A stretch of 64,000 nucleotides of DNA from Escherichia phage mio. This document shows positions 1,106 to 57,476 of this stretch, one piece after another. Both the position numbers and the translations under genes were made by a program. The notes under the pieces are model-generated. The model was not told the DNA's origin. It saw only the letters and a program-made list of their open reading frames with translations, and did no database searches. The DNA lies in sequence record MN850631.1. One strand, 5' to 3'. The stretch's first letter is position 1, and every line of letters begins with the position of its first letter.

Positions 1106-1613
1106 TGTAAGTTGCCCTATAAACTATCTCGAACTTCAACAGGAGAGATATTGCCAAATCTGTATAGTTGTTGTCAAGCACATCTGGCATATTATTTTTG
1201 ATATATTTCTCTTGTTCTTCGTAGGTCATCTTAGGGGTACTTAGGAGGCTATCTCCTTGCTTCTGGTTATCAGCTTTAGTTTGGATAAACCAGTTTGCAC
1301 AGTGATGCTCACCACCCTTTGTAACAGGTTTGTGGTGGCCTAATGTAAATGTTTGCTTACCTGTATACCTGCAAAGATTGTTCAGTGTTGCAATAGTGTT
1401 CTTCACAACACACCATTCATACAGGTTATCTATTGTGTAGTGTGGGTAATAACGGACAAGTGCTCTTTCACGGTAGTTATCACGATTCCAAAGAACCATA
1501 TGATTAGAATTTGAAGGGTCGTATTGGTGGGAGTCAATGAACTCTTGACGTTCCTCAAAGCTGAGTCTTAGAACTGACATTGCAGCCGAACGTTTCAGGT
1601 TTGACAGATACAT
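1098..1613 (-). CDS. hypothetical protein
   Basis: 171-aa ORF, 8-nt overlap with downstream gene. Confidence 0.45.
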   Translation of the reverse strand: MYLSNLKRSAAMSVLRLSFEERQEFIDSHQYDPSNSNHMVLWNRDNYRERALVRYYPHYTIDNLYEWCVVKNTIATLNNLCRYTGKQTFTLGHHKPVTKGGEHHCANWFIQTKADNQKQGDSLLSTPKMTYEEQEKYIKNNMPDVLDNNYTDLAISLLLKFEIVYRATYNG

Positions 1614-2368: not shown

Positions 2369-2854
2369 TTATTCTGCTCTCCACTGACAATCACCTTGCC
2401 ACCCATACTCTTTTCTCCAGAGGTTTTGATTATCAGAACCACGATACGGTTTAACTGTTGGTTTAGATGAATCATACTTACCATCAATCACCACGTCAAC
2501 ATATTTCATCACATCTAGGTGAATTTTTTCGTGTAACTGAAAACCTGTCCATAGCCAGATAGACTTCTCTGGGTAAACAGTTTTAATACGTTTGCATATG
2601 TTGGTAACCTCTTGAATATTTCTATCATCCAGAGGTTCTCCACCAAGTATCGACAACCCACTGACAGCATTATCACCCATTAGCTGGATGATTCCGTAGA
2701 GGTTTGCATAAGTAAATACTTTACCAGCATTAAACTTCCAAGACTCCCTGTTAAAGCAGCCTTCACAGTGATGCTTACAACCAGCTACGAAGAGGCTTAC
2801 ACGAACCCCTTCACCATTAGCTGTATCAAATGGTCGAATCTCCATGTAATTCAT
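2369..2854 (-). CDS. nrdG: anaerobic ribonucleotide reductase activating protein (radical SAM)
   Basis: 161 aa; Cys cluster CKHHCEGCFN typical of the NrdG radical-SAM site; sits near nrdD. Confidence 0.7.
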   Translation of the reverse strand: MNYMEIRPFDTANGEGVRVSLFVAGCKHHCEGCFNRESWKFNAGKVFTYANLYGIIQLMGDNAVSGLSILGGEPLDDRNIQEVTNICKRIKTVYPEKSIWLWTGFQLHEKIHLDVMKYVDVVIDGKYDSSKPTVKPYRGSDNQNLWRKEYGWQGDCQWRAE

Positions 2855-13183: not shown

Positions 13184-14041
13184 TTAGTCTTCTGTATCGA
13201 AGTCTTCATCTTCTTCGTCATCTGGGTCTGGCAAATCTTCATCATCACCATCATCAGAAGCATTCGAAGGTTTATGGTCTGTTGCATCTTCTTCAGTGAT
13301 TTCACCGTTATCTTCAACACCATCAAGACCAAGCATAGCCAGTTCATCTTCATCCAGTTCAGGTTCACCATTAGCACCGTTACCACCAGTGTAAGGTACA
13401 AGGGTATCAATGATAAACTGTTCCTGAATAGGTTTTGTCAGAACATTGTTCTCAAAAGTGTAGAAGTGAGTAGAAAGAATCACACTACCAAAAGAACCGT
13501 TACCAACTGCGATATCTGGATGAATTACGTCATAGTTCTTGTCATCTTCATGTTTATCAGATGCTTGAGCTTTGATTTTCTTCATCGGCTGCTTAACAGC
13601 TACACGCTTACCATTTACTTCTTCAATCAGCATTACAGGGAATGACTGTTTAGCTGTCCATACAGCACCATCTTTATAAGCTGCTGCACGACTTACTTTC
13701 AAGATGTAGTAAGTGTCTGCTTCAAAAGGTGGTTTACAACCAAACTTCTCTTCGAAGTCATCTGCATCAACTGCTTCAGTAGTAACTTTATCCCAGCCTT
13801 CTGGATTTTTCTTAGACTTAGTAAACTCTTTAAACAGTTTGTTACCGTCTTCTGCCAGAATTGATACGCTGTAGTTACAATCTTTTCCTGGGAATTTCTT
13901 GTCAATGGATTTACCTTTTCCCGGACGTGGTGAAGTGTTCAGGTAATAAAACCACACATCTTTCAGAAGGTAACGCAGAGTTTGACGTTCAGTACCATTG
14001 TACTTCTCTACCGGAGCTTTCATTTTAACAACTTTAGACAT
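13184..14041 (-). CDS. putative single-stranded DNA-binding protein with acidic C-terminal tail
   Basis: 285 aa; extremely acidic C-terminus (DDGDDEDLPDPDDEEDEDFDTED) as in phage SSBs; placement among replication genes. Confidence 0.4.
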   Translation of the reverse strand: MSKVVKMKAPVEKYNGTERQTLRYLLKDVWFYYLNTSPRPGKGKSIDKKFPGKDCNYSVSILAEDGNKLFKEFTKSKKNPEGWDKVTTEAVDADDFEEKFGCKPPFEADTYYILKVSRAAAYKDGAVWTAKQSFPVMLIEEVNGKRVAVKQPMKKIKAQASDKHEDDKNYDVIHPDIAVGNGSFGSVILSTHFYTFENNVLTKPIQEQFIIDTLVPYTGGNGANGEPELDEDELAMLGLDGVEDNGEITEEDATDHKPSNASDDGDDEDLPDPDDEEDEDFDTED

Positions 14042-52168: not shown

Positions 52169-52244
52169 TGGAGAATCCGAAGGGACTCGAACCCTTATAA
52201 ACCTGTTTTGCAGACAGGCACATATCCATTTCTGTCACGGATTC
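52169..52244 (-). tRNA. tRNA-Cys (anticodon GCA)
   Basis: 76 nt, hand-folded cloverleaf; acceptor GAATCCG/CGGATTC, anticodon loop CTGCAAA, T-arm GGGTTCGAGTCCC, encoded CCA. Confidence 0.7.
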
Positions 52245-52248
52245 AAAT

Positions 52249-52341
52249 TGGAGGAAGATACCAGACTTGAACTGGTACACCGATTTCTCAGCTACTGGCA
52301 GTTTAGCAAACTGCTCCCTTACCTTTTAGGGTTAATCTTCC
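52249..52341 (-). tRNA. tRNA-Ser (anticodon GCU), type II
   Basis: 93 nt; acceptor GGAAGAT/ATCTTCC, anticodon loop TTGCTAA, long variable arm, encoded CCA. Confidence 0.6.
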
Positions 52342-52342
52342 A

Positions 52343-53077
52343 TTATTTCTGTAATGCGCTCTTCATTTCTGGTGTTGCAATAGTATCAATCACACCAGTT
52401 TTACAAGCATCATCAAACCAGTCTGGTAAGATACCTGCTAAGAACCCATTGATATTCGTTTTAAGGTACTCTGCAATAAGGGCAGCTTCTTCTTCAATCA
52501 TCTGCACAACTTCATCTGCATAAGCTGTAATCTTTGAGATACCTTCATTAATCTTACTAACAGCCTGATTAGCTAAATCAGAAACAGTATCAAGACCCTT
52601 ATCAATAGCGTCTTGTAAGTCACTTAACACACCATTAACACTATCTAGTGTGCTGTTAATCATGTCAATAGCTTTTTGACCATATTCTGTAGCAACACCC
52701 ATAATACCACTGAATGGTGTACAACCAACTTGTTCTCCTGCTGCACCCATAACATTGGAATAACCCTTTGCTACCTGCATACGTGATGAAAACTCATCAA
52801 TAGATTTTTGACCATAGTCTGTTAGGGTCTTAGTAGTTGCTGTAGTGCTTGTCAGACTTGTTGTAAAGCTGTTTAGAAGGACTGTTGTAAGTCCAGCAGC
52901 AACAAGTTTCTCCTGCATTGTAGGGTCTGTTACAGAGCTAATAGAGCTTACAAGTGATGTAGAGGCAGCTACGGTTCCACCGAGAACTGCTGCACCAGTA
53001 ATAAGTGGGTTAGAAAACCCTTTACCGGTTTTTAAGAGATTAAAAATCTCCTTACCTTGTTCTGTCATCTCTTTCAT
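52343..53077 (-). CDS. hypothetical protein embedded in the tRNA array
   Basis: ORF 52343..53140 trimmed to internal ATG 53077 because the upstream part overlaps tRNA-Phe; Thr/Ser/Ala-rich. Confidence 0.35.
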   Translation of the reverse strand: MKEMTEQGKEIFNLLKTGKGFSNPLITGAAVLGGTVAASTSLVSSISSVTDPTMQEKLVAAGLTTVLLNSFTTSLTSTTATTKTLTDYGQKSIDEFSSRMQVAKGYSNVMGAAGEQVGCTPFSGIMGVATEYGQKAIDMINSTLDSVNGVLSDLQDAIDKGLDTVSDLANQAVSKINEGISKITAYADEVVQMIEEEAALIAEYLKTNINGFLAGILPDWFDDACKTGVIDTIATPEMKSALQK

Positions 53078-53093
53078 TAAGCACCTTTGAAAT

Positions 53094-53169
53094 TGGTAGT
53101 CCAGTGGGATTTGAACCCTCTTCTCATGTTTTTCAGACACGCGCTTTAACCATATAAGCTACTTGGACT
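53094..53169 (-). tRNA. tRNA-Phe (anticodon GAA)
   Basis: 76 nt; anticodon stem CGTGT/ACATG, loop CTGAAAA; T-loop GGTTCAAATCC; CCA encoded. Confidence 0.6.
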
Positions 53170-53175
53170 ATAAAT

Positions 53176-53251
53176 TGGGGTGACCTACGGGAGTCGAACC
53201 CGTATAGACCATGTTCACAGCATGGGTCATTGCCATTTATGATAAGGCCAC
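53176..53251 (-). tRNA. tRNA-His (anticodon GUG)
   Basis: 76 nt; anticodon stem CCATG/CATGG, loop CTGTGAA; T-loop GGTTCGACTCC; CCA encoded. Confidence 0.7.
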
Positions 53252-53282
53252 ATTTAAGGACTCTCGTAAGAACCCTTAGAAG

Positions 53283-53358
53283 TGGCAGCGGCATAAGGAT
53301 TTGAACCTTAATAGGACAGCTTCAGAGACTGCTGCATTGCCAGTTATGCTATACCGCT
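53283..53358 (-). tRNA. tRNA-Gln (anticodon CUG)
   Basis: 76 nt; D-stem GCAT/ATGC, anticodon loop CTCTGAA, T-stem TAAGG/CCTTA; CCA encoded. Confidence 0.55.
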
Positions 53359-53363
53359 AAATT

Positions 53364-53434
53364 TGGTACTCCATATCGGATTCGAACCGATACATAACAC
53401 AGATTTTAAGTCTGGCCTCTCTGCCAATTGGAGT
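53364..53434 (-). tRNA. tRNA, anticodon UAA (Leu-type anticodon on a short class-I scaffold)
   Basis: 71 nt; T-arm ATCGG-TTCGAAT-CCGAT, anticodon loop CTTAAAA, no long variable arm, A at discriminator; atypical. Confidence 0.4.
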
Positions 53435-53444
53435 AATGGAGCAT

Positions 53445-53519
53445 TGGCGGGGGATGTTGGAATTGAACCAACTTCTTCGATTTCAAAGACCGAGGTTTTA
53501 ACCTTGTAAACTAATCCCC
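53445..53519 (-). tRNA. tRNA-Gln (anticodon UUG)
   Basis: 75 nt; anticodon stem TCGGT/ATCGA, loop CTTTGAA; T-arm GTTGG-TTCAATT-CCAAC; acceptor has two mismatches. Confidence 0.5.
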
Positions 53520-53528
53520 TTTAAATCT

Positions 53529-54086
53529 TTACTTTCTCAGTGGATGAATAAAGAATGCCAACATAACTCTTTCCCTTGAGAATGCTCTTTCTTCTGGGAC
53601 AACACTTTTTAGTTTCCATCCAACATAAATTCTCCAGTAAAACTGTTTACCAAAGACTTTAATTGATGGGATAAAAGCGAATAATCCCCAAGCATTACTG
53701 TTCCACATTAGGAGATAACCAGTCTGATTATCTTCAGGGTCAGAACTTACGTTGATATTACCTTTCCACTTAGTAACATCTTTTACATCTCTTCCTAACA
53801 CATGGTAAGAGAAGTTATAAGCTTTGTTTCTCCAGAGCCATCCAACTCTCTGCAAATAGACACCCAGCTTACCAATCTTTCTAATCTTAGCCCATCTTTT
53901 AACGTGGCCTTCGTCACCATCAATCGGGTTGTCGTAGGTTTCCATCCATCTGAATCCAAAAGGTAGGTGTCCTTTCTTCTCACTGTAGAATGGAACTACG
54001 AAAGGTGCTAAGATGACTGCTAGGGTTGCTGCAAATGGCTCTAGTAAAGCTAGGAAAATCCATGAAGCATACTTCAAATATCTCAT
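53529..54086 (-). CDS. hypothetical membrane protein embedded in the tRNA array
   Basis: 185 aa; N-terminal hydrophobic segment WIFLALLEPFAATLAVILAPFVVPF, Trp/Lys/Arg-rich remainder. Confidence 0.35.
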   Translation of the reverse strand: MRYLKYASWIFLALLEPFAATLAVILAPFVVPFYSEKKGHLPFGFRWMETYDNPIDGDEGHVKRWAKIRKIGKLGVYLQRVGWLWRNKAYNFSYHVLGRDVKDVTKWKGNINVSSDPEDNQTGYLLMWNSNAWGLFAFIPSIKVFGKQFYWRIYVGWKLKSVVPEERAFSRERVMLAFFIHPLRK

Positions 54087-54105
54087 CTAAATAGCCTCTT
54101 AAAAT

Positions 54106-54183
54106 TGGTGTTCCAAGACGGATTCGAACCGTCACTAATACAAGGTTTGAGCTTGCATCCTCTGCCAATTGGGATACTGGAAC
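54106..54183 (-). tRNA. tRNA, anticodon CAA (Leu-type anticodon on class-I scaffold)
   Basis: 78 nt; T-arm GACGG-TTCGAAT-CCGTC, anticodon loop CTCAAAC with extended stem; short variable region; atypical. Confidence 0.4.
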
Positions 54184-54184
54184 A

Positions 54185-54259
54185 TGGTACTCACTAAAGG
54201 ACTTGAACCTTTTTCTTCATCTTGTAAGGGTGATGTTTTACCATATAAACTAAGCGAGT
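54185..54259 (-). tRNA. tRNA-Val (anticodon UAC)
   Basis: 75 nt; D-stem GTTT/AAAC, anticodon loop CTTACAA, T-arm AAAGG-TTCAAGT-CCTTT; CCA encoded. Confidence 0.65.
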
Positions 54260-54354
54260 GTGAAAGAGGTCTGAAGTTGTGCCGCTAACTCAACTCCGTG
54301 GAATTTGTTACGGTCTTCAGTTGACACAAGCGGTCTTTCACTTGACCTCTGAAT

Positions 54355-54431
54355 TGGTGCTGCTCACAGGACTCGAACCTGCATTTCCATCCTTACAAGG
54401 GATGTGTAATAGCCAATTATACGAAAGCAGC
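54355..54431 (-). tRNA. tRNA-Thr (anticodon UGU)
   Basis: 77 nt; anticodon stem CATCC/GGATG, loop CTTGTAA; T-loop GGTTCGAGTCC; CCA encoded. Confidence 0.65.
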
Positions 54432-54438
54432 ATTAATT

Positions 54439-54513
54439 TGGAGCATCCAGAGGGAATCGAACCCTCAACCTCAGTTTGGAAGACTGTAATTTTCCCGTTT
54501 AAACTATGGATGC
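54439..54513 (-). tRNA. tRNA-Gly (anticodon UCC)
   Basis: 75 nt; anticodon stem CAGT/ACTG, loop CTTCCAA; T-arm GAGGG-TTCGATT-CCCTC; CCA encoded. Confidence 0.65.
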
Positions 54514-54519
54514 ACTAAT

Positions 54520-54595
54520 TGGTGGAGAAGCAGGGAATTGAACCCTGTACTTAAGTTTGCAAAACTTATGTTTTAACCATGTAAACTACATCCCC
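54520..54595 (-). tRNA. tRNA-Ala (anticodon UGC)
   Basis: 76 nt; anticodon loop TTTGCAA; G3-U70 wobble in acceptor stem (classic Ala identity element); CCA encoded. Confidence 0.65.
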
Positions 54596-54601
54596 GATAT
54601 C

Positions 54602-54677
54602 TGGTACAGGTGGAGGGAATTGAACCCATCGTCTTACTGATTAAGAGTCAGCCGCATAACCATTTTGCTACACCTGC
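54602..54677 (-). tRNA. tRNA-Lys (anticodon CUU)
   Basis: 76 nt; anticodon loop CTCTTAA; near-duplicate scaffold of the UUU Lys tRNA at 56281-56356; CCA encoded. Confidence 0.55.
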
Positions 54678-54684
54678 ATTAATT

Positions 54685-54762
54685 TGGTAGGAGACAAGGG
54701 ATTCGAACCCTCAAACATCTCGTTCTAAGCGAGATAGGTTTACCAATTACCATCAATCTCCC
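54685..54762 (-). tRNA. tRNA, anticodon UAG (Leu-type anticodon on class-I scaffold)
   Basis: 78 nt; anticodon stem TCTCG/CGAGA, loop CTTAGAA; T-loop GGTTCGAATCC; atypical D region. Confidence 0.4.
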
Positions 54763-54843
54763 ATTAAATCTTTTTAGAGAACTTCTAAGAACCTAAGCAA
54801 CAAGGTTCCACAACAAGCTGTAATAACCTTAGAAGCCCTCTAA

Positions 54844-54864
54844 AAAGACCTAAAAAAGGTCTTT
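54844..54864 (-). terminator. terminator-like hairpin inside the tRNA array
   Basis: AAGACC-(T)6A-GGTCTT hairpin; U-run follows on the minus strand; weak. Confidence 0.3.
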
Positions 54865-55018
54865 GCATAGTCTTGTTTAATCCGGTGACTAGAACCTTTG
54901 GAGAGCTTGATATTATCTCTTCTCCGTGACACCTACTAGGTGCTTTATTAGTGTGTACGACAACACACGAGGGATACCAAAGCAACATCCTAATGAAGCT
55001 TGGCTTTAAATCTTATTA

Positions 55019-55108
55019 GGCGGTAAGTAAAGGAGTCGAACCCTCACCGTATCTCTACAGTGGCAACAGTTTTCAAGACTGTTTGGCTGCCATTAGCCGC
55101 TACCTACC
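55019..55108 (-). tRNA. tRNA-Ser (anticodon UGA), type II
   Basis: About 88 nt; anticodon stem ACAGT/ACTGT, loop CTTGAAA; long variable arm; 3' CCA not encoded (CCT). Confidence 0.55.
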
Positions 55109-55121
55109 CCTAATAAGACTT

Positions 55122-55204
55122 TGGCATGGGACGGAGGAGTTGAACCCCTTTGAAACGGTTTTGGAGGCCGTTGCTCATGCCTTAGAGTCTTAACATCGTC
55201 CCAC
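55122..55204 (-). tRNA. tRNA-Trp-like (anticodon CCA), atypical 83 nt
   Basis: Acceptor GTGGGAC/GTCCCAT, anticodon loop CTCCAAA, T-loop GGGTTCAACTCC; enlarged D region. Confidence 0.4.
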
Positions 55205-55341
55205 ACTATAATTCGAAGCTTACCGTATTATCTCAACACTGTAAAGCCCCTTCTCAGATTATTTACATGTTCTGGAAAACATGAGATACAGACCACCTCC
55301 CTACAGGAAGACCCGCTTAGGTCGTCTAAGTAATCTGCTAA

Positions 55342-55689
55342 CTAATACTTTGCATGTCTTACCCTATGGCAATTTGAACATAGCAAAACACATTTGTCAA
55401 GTTCATCTTTTAGCTCTTGAGAGAACTTAAGGCTTTTCCTATGACCAATGTTAAAATCTTTATCTGAAGGATTCAAATGATGGAAGTCATACACTGCTGG
55501 ATGATACTTTTTACCACAATCATGACAAACCCCACCTTTGTACTCAATAGCTGAGAGTTTAAGTGCTCTTTGTCTTTCTATGGTTTGCTCATTAACACAC
55601 TTTTTACAGTATGAATGAGTTCTTCTACCATCTTTCATGTAGAAATCATTTTCATCCTTGCTAAGTTTGCACCTAATACAAGTTTTCAT
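55342..55689 (-). CDS. HNH homing endonuclease
   Basis: ORF 55342..55740 trimmed to ATG 55689 (upstream part overlaps a tRNA); CxxC ... HHLNP ... CSNCHRVRH HNH/zinc motif. Confidence 0.6.
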   Translation of the reverse strand: MKTCIRCKLSKDENDFYMKDGRRTHSYCKKCVNEQTIERQRALKLSAIEYKGGVCHDCGKKYHPAVYDFHHLNPSDKDFNIGHRKSLKFSQELKDELDKCVLLCSNCHRVRHAKY

Positions 55690-55703
55690 GATTTCTCCAA
55701 AAT

Positions 55704-55785
55704 TGGTCGAGGCGGCAGGACTCGAACCCGCATACTCCACTTACTCGGTTAACGGCGGTTTAGAAGACCGCTGAGATACGCCCCG
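55704..55785 (-). tRNA. tRNA-Arg-like (anticodon-type loop CTTCTAA = UCU), structurally anomalous
   Basis: 82 nt; T-arm GCGGG-TTCGAGT-CCTGC and acceptor CGGGGCG/CGCCTCG, but the UCU hairpin sits where the D-arm should be, followed by 23 unassigned nt. Confidence 0.35.
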
Positions 55786-56078
55786 TAATTATCTTTAAAG
55801 ACTCTCTTAGAAAGCCCTTAAAGATGCCCACCTTATTAATCATACCGTGGGCTAGTACGCCAAATTCTTTGATGAGGGATTGGAAGACCTCACTGGTGTT
55901 TAGCCTATCAAGCTACTGCCAGAAAAACATTGTCGTTTGCATTTATTTTAAATTTGCAAAATAGACGCTACGCAACGAAAACTATTCAGAATATGTACAA
56001 CAAATTTCCCCACATTGTGTTACGTCTAACGCTCATGTATTGGTGTTTGAATTATACATATTATGAAGTATTTTAGTT

Positions 56079-56107
56079 ACTATAAAGTGGTCACATCTCA
56101 ATGTCAA
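56079..56107 (-). promoter_or_regulatory. sigma70-like promoter driving minus-strand transcription into the tRNA array
   Basis: Minus-strand TTGACA (rc of 56102-56107), 17-nt spacer, TATAGT (rc of 56079-56084). Confidence 0.5.
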
Positions 56108-56122
56108 CAACTTTATTGAAAT

Positions 56123-56198
56123 TGGTACTGGTAGGTGGAATCGAACCACCGATATTCCCTTATCAGGGGAGTGTTATAACCTTCTTAACTATACCAGC
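56123..56198 (-). tRNA. tRNA-Ile (anticodon GAU)
   Basis: 76 nt; anticodon loop CTGATAA, T-arm GGTGG-TTCGATT-CCACC; CCA encoded. Confidence 0.65.
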
Positions 56199-56199
56199 T

Positions 56200-56276
56200 T
56201 GGAGGTTCAGATGGGAATCGAACCCACATTCATAGGGCTTATGAAACCCCTGCATTACCTTATCTGCGACTGAACC
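56200..56276 (-). tRNA. tRNA-Met (anticodon CAU; three G-C pairs in anticodon stem, initiator-like)
   Basis: 77 nt; anticodon stem GGGGT/GCCCT with loop TTCATAA; T-loop GGGTTCGATTCCC; CCA encoded. Confidence 0.55.
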
Positions 56277-56280
56277 ATAT

Positions 56281-56356
56281 TGGTAGAAGTGGAGGGATTC
56301 GAACCCATCGCCTGTCAGATTAAAAGTCTGCCGCATCACCATTCTGCTACACTTCC
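56281..56356 (-). tRNA. tRNA-Lys (anticodon UUU)
   Basis: 76 nt; anticodon loop CTTTTAA; scaffold nearly identical to the CUU Lys tRNA at 54602-54677. Confidence 0.6.
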
Positions 56357-56361
56357 ATTAA

Positions 56362-56504
56362 ATTATCTTTGTAGATAAGCTACCCAGACTTGCTTAAGGT
56401 CTGTAGCGATGTGCATTGTTGGGTTTAAATCTAGAATTTACCCTTTCACCCTTTGTGGTCGCATACTCACAGGTAAGCTTAATAACTTATCTACAAAGAT
56501 AATT
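56362..56504 (-). ncRNA. structured element with 19-bp perfect terminal inverted repeat (candidate ncRNA or mobile-element remnant)
   Basis: AATTATCTTTGTAGATAAG (56362-56380) and its exact reverse complement CTTATCTACAAAGATAATT (56486-56504) enclose about 105 nt with internal hairpins; no T-loop; strand unknown. Confidence 0.35.
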
Positions 56505-56505
56505 A

Positions 56506-56636
56506 CCAGACCGTTGTTTATCATCTTAAGTGCTACCATTACACCAACTCGACCTCTGCCGAGTGAAGGAATCGAACCTTCGCCTTTTCTTTACCGAGAA
56601 ATAGATTGTTTAAGCTTTGCTGTAAACGGTCTTCTG
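56506..56636 (-). ncRNA. circularly permuted tRNA-like element (candidate Y-RNA-like ncRNA or permuted tRNA gene)
   Basis: In minus-strand sense: variable-arm hairpin TTTCT-CGGTA-AGAAA, T-arm GAAGG-TTCGATT-CCTTC, acceptor-like hairpin ACTCGGC-AGAG-GTCGAGT, D-arm-like GTG-TAATGGTAG-CAC, then TTAAGAT pairing back to ATCT and an 8-bp outer helix AGACCGTT/AACGGTCT. Confidence 0.45.
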
Positions 56637-56810
56637 TAAATTTGTTGAGCCAGACCAAGTTTTAAATTTTTCAAAATTAAATTGGCTTGAAATTTTAAGT
56701 AACTTGCTGTATTTGGTCTTCTGCTCCTTTAAAGAATACTCGTAAGAACTCTTTAAGGGAGGGGCTAAATAGCCCTCTCAAAACATCATTTTGAAATACT
56801 TATTATAATT

Positions 56811-56888
56811 TGGCGGTTACGAAGGGACTCGAACCCTCATCATCTCCCGTGACAGGGGAGTATTTTAACCATATTAAACTACATAACC
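56811..56888 (-). tRNA. tRNA-Asp (anticodon GUC)
   Basis: 78 nt; anticodon stem CTCCC/GGGAG, loop CTGTCAC; T-loop GGGTTCGAGTCCC; CCA encoded. Confidence 0.65.
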
Positions 56889-56894
56889 TTCATT

Positions 56895-56982
56895 TGGTGT
56901 GCCGTGTAGGAGTCGAACCTACCGAGTCTCAATGACAAGGGATTTACAGTCCCCACCGCTACCATCTACGGGATAACGACAC
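56895..56982 (-). tRNA. tRNA-Tyr (anticodon GUA), type II
   Basis: 88 nt; anticodon loop CTGTAAA, long variable arm, T-arm GTAGG-TTCGACT-CCTAC; CCA encoded. Confidence 0.6.
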
Positions 56983-56991
56983 ATTTAAATT

Positions 56992-57068
56992 TGGCGGTTA
57001 GTCAGGGATTCGAACCCTGTGCCATTCGCTTAACAGGCGACCGCACATACCTTATGTGCTTCCTAACC
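56992..57068 (-). tRNA. tRNA-Asn (anticodon GUU)
   Basis: 77 nt; D-stem GCAC/GTGC, anticodon loop CTGTTAA, T-loop GGGTTCGAATCCC; CCA encoded. Confidence 0.65.
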
Positions 57069-57145
57069 TTAATACATTGCCAGACCGTGTTTTTTCTTTT
57101 ATCCGCAAAAAGTAGTTTGTTGCTGCATACAGTCTTCTGCAAAAT

Positions 57146-57222
57146 TGGAGGCGGGTGCAGGAGTCGAACCTGCCGATACCATGCTAATGAGACATGTGAG
57201 ACGCCCTTTCTCTATACCCGCA
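57146..57222 (-). tRNA. tRNA with CAU anticodon (Met or Ile2-type)
   Basis: 77 nt; anticodon stem CATGT/GCATG, loop CTCATTA; 1:72 mismatch in acceptor; T-arm GCAGG-TTCGACT-CCTGC. Confidence 0.5.
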
Positions 57223-57313
57223 ATTCTTAATGACCAGACCAAATCTCTTCTTTGTCCGATTTACCTTCAGATGAATAAGATTAAGTTTGCTGTAATTGGT
57301 CTTCTGTCAAAAC

Positions 57314-57391
57314 TGGCGTTCCAGAAGGGATTTGAACCCTCAGATATCCACTTTGAAAGAGTGGTGACTTTACCATTTTGTCTACTGGAAC
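57314..57391 (-). tRNA. tRNA-Glu (anticodon UUC)
   Basis: 78 nt; anticodon stem CCACT/AGTGG, loop CTTTCAA; T-loop GGGTTCAAATCCC; CCA encoded. Confidence 0.65.
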
Positions 57392-57398
57392 ATTAATT

Positions 57399-57476
57399 TG
57401 GTCTCTGTTGGAGGACTTGAACCTCCGGCCTTACCGCCCCAAACGGAACGCTCTACCAAGCTGAGCTAAACAGAGA
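57399..57476 (-). tRNA. tRNA-Pro (anticodon UGG)
   Basis: About 78 nt; canonical D-arm AGCTCAGCTTGGTAGAGC, anticodon loop TTTGGGG, T-arm GGAGG-TTCAAGT-CCTCC; CCA encoded. Confidence 0.7.

Follow-up and report, generated by a model that had tools for sequence, protein, structure and literature searches.

The 82-nt element and its locus

We analysed a window of 64,000 nucleotides (nt) from Escherichia phage mio (MN850631.1), a Felixounavirus (FelixO1-like), and focused on an 82-nt element on its minus strand (55704-55785, read from 55785 to 55704) that resembles a tRNA-Arg gene with its parts in a non-canonical order. The element is embedded in a minus-strand tRNA cluster (52169-57475), in which ARAGORN called 24 tRNAs, none of them a canonical tRNA-Arg and none at the position of the element. 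The region is matched by 269 phage records, and a sensitive BLAST search with the whole intergenic unit resolved it into a mosaic of the 82-nt element and a separate stretch of about 200 nt upstream (described below as the tag RNA), which recurs separately in lambdoid phages, Ackermannviridae and other phages.

From 5' to 3', the element consists of CGGGGCG, UAUCUCA, the hairpin GCGGU-CUUCUAA-ACCGC, the 23-nt segment CGUUAACCGAGUAAGUGGAGUAU, the hairpin GCGGG-UUCGAGU-CCUGC, CGCCUCG, A, and CCA (7+7+5+7+5+23+5+7+5+7+1+3 = 82 nt). Its outer strands form an acceptor stem of 7 bp that includes one G.U pair and is followed by a discriminator and a 3' CCA, a 5-bp T stem with a 7-nt loop of the UUCRANY type adjoins the 3' acceptor strand, and a 5-bp anticodon stem carries a 7-nt loop in which position 33 is U and position 37 a purine. 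The element departs from the cloverleaf in one respect, since there is no D-arm hairpin between the acceptor and anticodon stems, where just 7 nt are found. An earlier sequence-only reading had described the T-arm and the 7-bp acceptor stem bracketing 82 nt, as well as a UCU-type hairpin starting 7 nt after the acceptor strand; both descriptions agree with the minus-strand sequence, and the hairpin is a real, covarying anticodon arm. The same reading regarded this hairpin as displaced and the 23 nt that follow it as unassigned. The length of 23 nt is correct, but the segment can be assigned to an 8-nt connector, the 5' strand of the D-stem, the D-loop and U48, and it is thus the 5' strand and loop of the D-arm that have moved, not the anticodon arm.

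Standard tools did not recognize the element as a tRNA. In Rfam, no family scored above threshold; the best match was to the ends of the transfer-messenger RNA (tmRNA) model (RF00023; 22.1 bits, E 3e-7, gathering score 47) and covered model positions 1-17 and 346-374 only. Any match to the tRNA model (RF00005, gathering score 29) lies below 22.1 bits, a bound rather than a score, since the Rfam output suppressed two lower-scoring overlaps from the same clan. A canonical cloverleaf with another 5' end or with an intron, the finding that would have contradicted the sequence-only reading, was detected by neither ARAGORN nor Rfam. The 94-98-nt 'Arg(tct)' calls that ARAGORN made in contigs L154 and L150 represent the architecture of the element forced into a long 5' extension. 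In existing annotations, some copies are listed as 'tRNA-OTHER', and one Felixounavirus record has an unnamed 'tRNA'.

The comparison with loci of related phages, also proposed in the sequence-only reading, demonstrated that sister phages hold a canonical tRNA-Arg(UCU) gene at the same slot. The order in the window is Lys-Met-Ile-[tag RNA]-element, while in both the phiSUSP1-like contig L231 and Shigella phage ESh22 (Mooglevirus) the series Lys-Met-Ile-[tag RNA] is followed by a canonical tRNA-Arg(tct), which is 76 nt long in ESh22. The ESh22 tRNA and the element have their anticodon loop and T-loop in common and differ in the acceptor stem and D region. According to ARAGORN, 13 of the 14 carrier loci with at least ten tRNAs have no canonical tRNA-Arg(tct); canonical Arg(acg), Arg(tcg) and Arg(ccg) genes do occur there. 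The cognate codon AGA is rare in E. coli and is read by a minor tRNA. In the 56 open reading frames (ORFs) of the window, AGA is the most used arginine codon (41.6% of arginine codons, 16.8 per 1000), and AGG accounts for a further 11.1% of arginine codons.

Family conservation, covariation and arginine anticodons

Copies of the element with 83-90% identity were identified in Felixounavirus, Vequintavirinae, Stephanstirmvirinae, Asteriusvirus and a 110-kb Klebsiella phage, the carriers including Proteus phage Mydo (Vequintavirinae), muut (Stephanstirmvirinae) and the jumbo phage PBECO4. The family was collected by pattern scans over 2.9 million viral contigs using four different working anchors, which yielded 44 unique sequences that align without gaps; a fifth scan, anchored on the D-loop/T-arm junction only, brought the collection to about 72 distinct copies. 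Unless indicated otherwise, the values below refer to the alignment of 44 sequences. One of the patterns occurred in 57 viral contigs, and only 3 of 32.2 million contigs from bacterial and archaeal genomes contained it, all three belonging to metagenome-assembled genomes; the element family is phage-specific. A covariance model built for the family assigned 98.7 bits to the window copy (E about 3e-28) and 89-102 bits to family members, and no canonical tRNA in phage tRNA clusters totalling 646 kb exceeded 34.6 bits.

The three long helices are strongly supported by compensatory changes. In the first five copies, compensated changes were already apparent in the acceptor and anticodon stems, and variation was absent from the 7-nt linker and from most of the 23-nt segment. 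In the full alignment, the acceptor stems are nearly all different and yet fully compensated, with double compensatory changes in all 7 pairs and 99.4% of cells paired. All five pairs of the anticodon stem covary, and the T stem has 99.1% of cells paired and double changes in three of its five pairs. RNAalifold recovered these three helices. When a fourth helix is added, in which the displaced D-stem strand pairs across the anticodon arm, 98.6% of cells are paired and 17 of the 20 pairs show double changes; the covariation score of this four-helix model is 0.81, as compared to 0.20 for shuffled alignments (0 of 500 reached the observed score) and no more than 0.16 when the partners were slid.

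The cross-arm D helix joins the linker to the first GAGU of the 23-nt segment. All three of its pairs are kept in 44 of 44 sequences (100% of cells), a number that none of 20,000 shuffles reached (mean 25, maximum 34), and two of the three pairs have double changes. A scan that left both the linker and the post-anticodon segment free gave 13 sequences (12 of them unique in the alignment) in which UCUC and the first GAGU change together. The compensated combinations in the alignment are UCAC/GUGU, UCAG/CUGU, UCAU/AUGU, UCGC/GCGU and UCUU/AAGU, and later scans added UCGU/ACGU and UCGG/CCGU, making seven in all. The 12 variant sequences carry 11 different acceptor stems. The terminal U of the D-stem 5' strand faces another U (U13.U22), and this mismatch does not vary. 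An alternative pairing of UCUC with the second GAGU, the one within GGAGUAU, was rejected, as the compensation falls in the first GAGU and GGAGUAU is constant; this comparison is not clean, GGAGUA being pattern-fixed in that scan.

Conservation of the unpaired parts follows the same scheme. The segment after the D-stem strand has an unvarying AA..GGAGUA, where GGAG or GGAGUA was fixed by the search pattern for part of the set, and a scan that left the D-loop region free returned only YGGAGUAU among true members. The only variable loop positions are the two before GG (U/C/G, then U/C), as in ordinary D-loops, and the segment fits the canonical D-loop consensus, including a putative A20. With the exceptions at position 26 listed in Table 1, the unvarying unpaired nucleotides read U8 A9 ... 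A26 ... A14 A15 N16 Y17 G18 G19 A20 ... A21 U48. The anticodon loop is CUUCUAA in 62 of 72 unique members. The divergent members from contigs L145 and L150 have a connector of only 3-4 nt, and the encoded CCA, present in 26 of 37 complete unique copies, is not universal. Taken together, the secondary structure as described here is very likely correct.

Every anticodon in the family is an arginine anticodon. The scan anchored on the D-loop and T-arm found arginine anticodons in 72 of 72 members (UCU in 70, CCU in one, UCG in one). Another scan, in which the linker and the D-segment were fixed and the anticodon was left free, returned the loops CUUCUAA and CUUCUAC and a single UUCCUAA (CCU), that is, the anticodons UCU and CCU only. 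The covariance model added two divergent members with a shorter connector, one with ACG and one with UCU, so that the family has four anticodons in total (UCU, CCU, UCG and ACG). Two metagenomic phage contigs, L150 and L145, each hold two such genes, with CCU and UCU in the former and UCU and ACG in the latter, in addition to canonical tRNA-Arg genes. The presence of two genes with different anticodons or connector lengths in one contig shows that the architecture has diversified within the arginine isoacceptors.

The identity set of the E. coli arginyl-tRNA synthetase (ArgRS) consists of C35, U36 or G36, A20, and A or G at position 73. The window copy has C35, U36 and A73, and the family as a whole has C35 with U36 or G36. 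Position 73 is G in 27 of the sequences, A in 15, and U or C in one each. In 44 of 44 members, the GG of the D-loop-like segment is immediately followed by an A; GGAG was partly pattern-fixed, and the equivalence to position 20 is by analogy. A G3.U70 pair is the main determinant of the alanyl-tRNA synthetase (AlaRS), and the window copy unites the classical alanine set of G2-C71, G3.U70, G4-C69 and A73 with an arginine anticodon. Only seven of the 44 family members have G.U at 3-70, and muut has G3-C70; the G.U pair is kept in PBECO4, Mydo, phi1_146058 and L077 despite changes in the neighbouring pairs.

Table 1. Parts of the element and other features at the locus or in related contigs (window positions unless a contig is named)
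Feature	Coordinates	Strand	Remark
Acceptor stem 5' strand CGGGGCG (positions 1-7)	55779-55785	-	pairs with 55708-55714
U8 A9	55777-55778	-	UA unvarying in 44/44; assignment to the canonical junction by analogy
UCUC, D-stem 3' strand equivalent (positions 22-25)	55773-55776	-	C-U-C pairs with G-A-G at 55744-55746
A, position 26 equivalent	55772	-	37 A, 5 C and 2 U among 44; immediately precedes the anticodon stem
Anticodon arm GCGGU-CUUCUAA-ACCGC (positions 27-43)	55755-55771	-	anticodon UCU at 55762-55764
8-nt connector CGUUAACC, from anticodon stem 3' strand to D-stem 5' strand	55747-55754	-	begins with unvarying CG; last two positions variable
GAGU, D-stem 5' strand equivalent (positions 10-13)	55743-55746	-	covaries with 55773-55775
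D-loop equivalent AAGUGGAGUA	55733-55742	-	A14 A15 N16 Y17 G18 G19 A20 G U A21; family form AANYGGAGUA
U, position 48 equivalent	55732	-	U in 44/44; putative Levitt pair with A15, from canonical geometry
T-arm GCGGG-UUCGAGU-CCUGC	55715-55731	-	family loop UUCGARU
Acceptor stem 3' strand CGCCUCG (positions 66-72)	55708-55714	-	G3.U70 in the window copy
Discriminator A73 and encoded CCA	55704-55707	-	read from the sequence
Tag RNA	~55787-55985	-	immediately upstream of the element
Tag frame	55908-55940	-	same strand as the element, 166 nt upstream
Extra stretch of about 100 nt relative to ESh22	~55990-56100	-	between the promoter-like region after tRNA-Ile and the tag RNA start
Small Cys-rich ORF (MKTCIRCK...)	55342-55692	-	begins 11 nt past the CCA of the element
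Weak tRNA-Sec-model match	55128-55202	-	23 bits, E 0.5; no ARAGORN call
Transposed-D-arm tRNA-Arg genes, CCU and UCU	L150:12999-13077, 13348-13426		
Transposed-D-arm tRNA-Arg genes, UCU and ACG	L145:4029-4107, 2689-2763		
T-arm-bearing tRNA-like modules around the tag RNA	L035:~955-1035, 1438-1465, 1465-1575		no ARAGORN call
Long-variable-region tRNA-Ile(UAU)	L160:4163-4256, L163:2516-2609, L107:1612-1702, L150:6269-6364		
Long-variable-region tRNA-Asn	L031:2304-2388, L152:6269-6355		
Long-variable-region tRNA-Lys	L052:4627-4711		
Long-variable-region tRNA-Trp	L150:6372-6457		
Long-variable-region tRNA-Gln	L107:1255-1341		

The upstream tag RNA and other neighbours

The RNA upstream of the element contains a short frame, GCA AAC GAC AAU GUU UUU CUG GCA GUA GCU UGA, that encodes ANDNVFLAVA and a stop, is preceded by AUAAAU and has no in-frame start codon. 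The 124 copies of the tag RNA encode 12 variants of this peptide, which follow the pattern AN[D/E]xx[F/Y]LAVA-stop and show many synonymous codon differences; the stop codon is located inside a hairpin, and further covarying hairpins follow. These features are the signature of the messenger module of a tmRNA. The tag module was found in the tRNA clusters of Ounavirinae, in lambdoid phages (between pR'/qut and the holin gene in HK633), in Ackermannviridae and in Klebsiella phages, and a promoter-like site (TTGACA-N17) precedes it in ESh22, BUCT610 and SunLIRen. ARAGORN called no tmRNA in any tag-RNA locus, the Rfam matches of the tag RNA are sub-threshold (15-26 bits), and two published tmRNA censuses list no enterobacterial phage tmRNA. 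A search of the tag RNA for a tRNA-like domain (TLD), using T-arm and CCA motifs and, in Ackermannviridae copies, a closing helix, established none. The tag RNA may be an undescribed tmRNA-like or TLD-less RNA. It adjoins the element only in Felixounavirus-type loci (14 loci), while 57 loci have the element only and 106 the tag only, which shows that the two modules are independent; the 57 element-only copies span 40 acceptor variants.

Several further features were observed around the tag RNA. The stretch of about 100 nt that the window has in excess of ESh22 contains a TATAAT-like hexamer, and a segment spanning most of it (~55977-56058) is 82% identical to the unrelated Escherichia phage flopper. 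Among Ackermannviridae, the tag RNAs differ in their 3' parts by inserted tRNA-like modules. In Salmonella phage SeSz-1 (Kuttervirus; L035 in Table 1), examples of such modules include GGUGAGG...GUGUGG-UUCGAUU-CCGCAC-CCUCGCC-A-ACA and a 19-bp stem capped by the hairpin GGCGGG-UUCGAGU-CCCGUG.

On the other side of the element, the small Cys-rich ORF is preceded by a GGAG ribosome-binding site. It had no Pfam match at 1e-3 and is labelled as an HNH endonuclease or endonuclease VII only through the annotation of homologous phage records; in Klebsiella phage phi1_146058, an annotated HNH endonuclease directly follows the element. This arrangement hints at a tRNA gene that is co-mobile with a homing endonuclease. 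The weak tRNA-Sec-model match, which may be a tRNA remnant, is located in the spacer after tRNA-Ser(tga); in the related phage VpaE1_ev78, this interval carries an additional ORF and a tRNA-Trp as insertions. In addition, several element-carrying clusters hold class-I tRNAs of 85-96 nt that combine a normal D-arm with a long variable-region hairpin, e.g. GAAC-GAAA-GUUC, which tRNAs for Ile, Asn, Lys, Trp and Gln do not usually have.

A probable tRNA-Arg with a transposed D-arm

We interpret the element as the gene for a working tRNA-Arg (UCU) of non-canonical topology with a transposed D-arm, with a probability of roughly 0.72; that the RNA is charged and takes part in decoding also appears probable. 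The observed basis of this reading is the secondary structure, the arginine-only anticodons, the phage-specific spread and the replacement of a canonical tRNA-Arg(UCU) at the orthologous slot. In the proposed topology, the stretch after the anticodon arm that usually forms the variable region encodes the 5' strand of the D-stem and the whole D-loop. The 3' strand of the D-stem and nucleotide 26 remain where they are in canonical tRNAs, immediately before the anticodon stem. The D helix (G10-C25, A11-U24, G12-C23, U13.U22) forms across the anticodon arm and thereby creates a three-way junction. Judging from the known geometry of tRNA, this junction could on paper retain the canonical stack of the D-stem on the anticodon stem. 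The nucleotides of the L-shape appear to be retained (U8, A9, A14, A15/U48, G18-G19 for the T-loop, and A20), and the topology could accommodate the U8-A14, A15-U48 and G18/G19-T-loop contacts and present A20. As no circular permutation of the transcript restores the canonical order, the mature RNA is expected to keep the transposed arrangement. The transcript would be processed by RNase P, charged by the host ArgRS via C35, U36, A20 and A/G73, and carried by EF-Tu. It would then decode the abundant AGA codons of the phage, for which the host tRNA is rare, and probably AGG as well.

Several observations weigh against this reading. Most copies were found by sequence patterns, which inflates the apparent conservation at anchored positions, and the anchors were varied to limit this effect. 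RNAalifold, which combines energy and covariation, predicts no 3-bp D helix; because it recovers neither of the competing short helices, the case for the D helix is one of covariation. The tertiary contacts U8-A14, A15-U48 and G18/G19-T-loop and the role of A20 are assigned by analogy, since the nucleotides involved are unvarying and thus beyond the reach of covariation. The minimum free energy of the element (-25.3 kcal/mol, z = 0.04 relative to shuffles) is no better than that of shuffled sequences, and thermodynamics alone would not flag it. The element and a canonical tRNA-Arg(tct) are not strictly exclusive, because contig L080 has both genes side by side. In the window copy, G3.U70 together with A73 means that AlaRS could mischarge the RNA. 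Finally, we infer the expression, processing, charging and decoding of the element.

The unusual architecture and the tight conservation of unpaired parts would also be expected of a protein-binding surface, and tRNA-cleaving defence systems exist (PMC12916289). The element could therefore be a non-decoding mimic, a decoy or regulator that absorbs a tRNA-Arg-directed nuclease, a modification enzyme or ArgRS, and a canonical tRNA-Arg(tct) is indeed retained beside it in L080. We consider this unlikely, since variation among four arginine anticodons with the remainder kept is the signature of decoding, and since the element takes the slot that the canonical tRNA-Arg(UCU) has in sister phages, in carriers with near-complete tRNA sets that would otherwise have no such isoacceptor despite their heavy use of AGA. 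The acceptor stem, discriminator, CCA and T-arm are intact as well. Of the three options raised in the sequence-only reading (a rearranged tRNA, a pseudo-tRNA or another tRNA-derived ncRNA), a rearranged tRNA-Arg is the one supported by the covarying anticodon arm and the tRNA-Arg(UCU) slot, and a pseudo-tRNA is contradicted by family conservation and covariation. A functionless pseudogene or rearrangement scar of a tRNA-Arg gene would account for the rejection by tRNA finders and for the unremarkable fold energy. A scar would not covary, however, and about 72 distinct copies in unrelated phage groups have compensated stems, unvarying loops, an encoded 3' end and covariance model scores of 89-102 bits, which makes this explanation practically negligible. 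It is very improbable, too, that the RNA is a D-armless tRNA with a long variable arm, in which the 7-nt linker stands in for the D-arm and the 23 nt fold into a hairpin YYG-AGUAAN-YGG. RNAfold draws this hairpin, and its 5' strand varies mostly between C and U opposite G, so that pairing is often kept. Nevertheless, it shows no double compensatory changes, has 15 broken cells and 88.6% pairing, has bases that cannot pair, such as AA, at the Y positions of several copies, and is not predicted by RNAalifold; for these reasons the hairpin was rejected. The cross-arm D helix, which competes for the same G, has 100% pairing and 17 double changes.

Two further explanations start from the G3.U70 pair of the window copy. 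The element could serve as the tRNA-like domain of a phage tmRNA-like system together with the upstream tag RNA and be alanylated through this pair; the Rfam match to the tmRNA ends falls exactly on the coordinates of the element, A73 is present, and a tag frame lies upstream on the same strand. In a tmRNA, the tag frame would be expected between the acceptor strands, but here it is upstream of the 5' acceptor strand, and the covarying, conserved anticodon arm with arginine anticodons is absent from tmRNA. The score of 22.1 bits is below the gathering score, G3.U70 is sporadic in the family, and sister genera have an ordinary tRNA-Arg or tRNA-Leu in the slot after the tag RNA. The independent occurrence of the two modules largely refutes this proposal, which we regard as highly implausible, and the Rfam match is explained by generic acceptor and T-arm similarity plus the G3.U70 of the window lineage. 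The Felixounavirus copy might instead be a dual-identity tRNA that is partly alanylated and inserts alanine at some AGA codons, as its alanine set and the retention of G.U at 3-70 in four carriers with changed neighbouring pairs could suggest. This appears quite unlikely, given that 37 of 44 members have no G3.U70, that intact ArgRS determinants would compete, and that systematic Arg-to-Ala errors at the commonest arginine codon would be costly.

Like canonical bacterial and phage tRNA-Arg(UCU), for example those of E. coli (argU) and ESh22, the element has a 7-bp acceptor stem, A/G73, an encoded CCA, a UUCGARU T-loop, a 5-bp anticodon stem with CUUCUAA and a D-loop of the AAUUGGA.. type, and it occupies the slot of the ESh22 gene in a phage tRNA cluster. 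In the canonical tRNA, the D-stem 5' strand and D-loop separate A9 from the D-stem 3' strand; in the element, they separate the anticodon arm from the T-arm, with an 8-nt connector in place of the variable loop. The permuted tRNA genes of Cyanidioschyzon merolae likewise have a non-canonical order of segments: their 3' half comes first, and the mature tRNA regains its canonical form by way of a circular intermediate. In the element, however, the acceptor strands are at the gene ends, and no circular permutation would undo its internal block swap. The tRNA-like domain of tmRNA (RF00023), including the TLD-only RNA of mycobacteriophage DS6A (PMC4131195), also combines an acceptor stem and a T-arm without a standard D stem, and differs from the element in the arginine anticodon arm, the non-conserved G3.U70 of the family and the independence of the tag module. 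D-armless mitochondrial tRNAs, such as the tRNA-Ser of nematode and mammalian mitochondria (PMC7609411), have a similarly short acceptor-anticodon linker and are also missed by cloverleaf finders, but they have lost the D-arm, whereas the element has a relocated D helix, a full D-loop and a normal T-arm. Neither a phage tRNA nor a rearrangement of this kind appears in a review of natural non-canonical tRNAs (PMC7609411), whose scope includes Sec, selC* Cys, allo-tRNA, Pyl and mitochondrial tRNAs. We found no description of the transposed-D-arm layout in the open-access literature searched, which is not proof of absence. The element represents a new, phage-specific and apparently functional structural variant of tRNA.

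It is tempting to speculate that this virus-only topology evolved once, spread among unrelated phages and provides an immune-evasive tRNA by re-wiring rather than by point mutation, an idea that we hold to be doubtful. The topology may satisfy the needs of ArgRS, EF-Tu and the ribosome while altering features that are read by a host or phage tRNA-directed nuclease or other enzyme. On this account, the RNA would lose the canonical D-arm connectivity by which an anti-phage tRNA nuclease, or a phage enzyme that destroys host tRNAs, recognizes tRNA-Arg, and through the added G3.U70 the Felixounavirus copy could also have alanine as a second identity. In relation to tRNA-targeting defence systems, the element is a concrete candidate.

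A single order of parts is taken for granted by all tRNA gene finders and in almost all thinking about tRNA. In the natural, widespread and apparently functional family described here, the D helix spans the anticodon arm. If charging and decoding hold true, the L-shape would be reachable by a different strand connectivity, which would be useful for RNA folding studies and for orthogonal tRNA design. It would also mean that phage tRNA inventories are systematically undercounted, as these genes are unannotated or listed as 'tRNA-OTHER' or plain 'tRNA', and it would explain the apparent lack of a tRNA for the commonest arginine codon in Felixounavirus and many other large enterobacterial phages.

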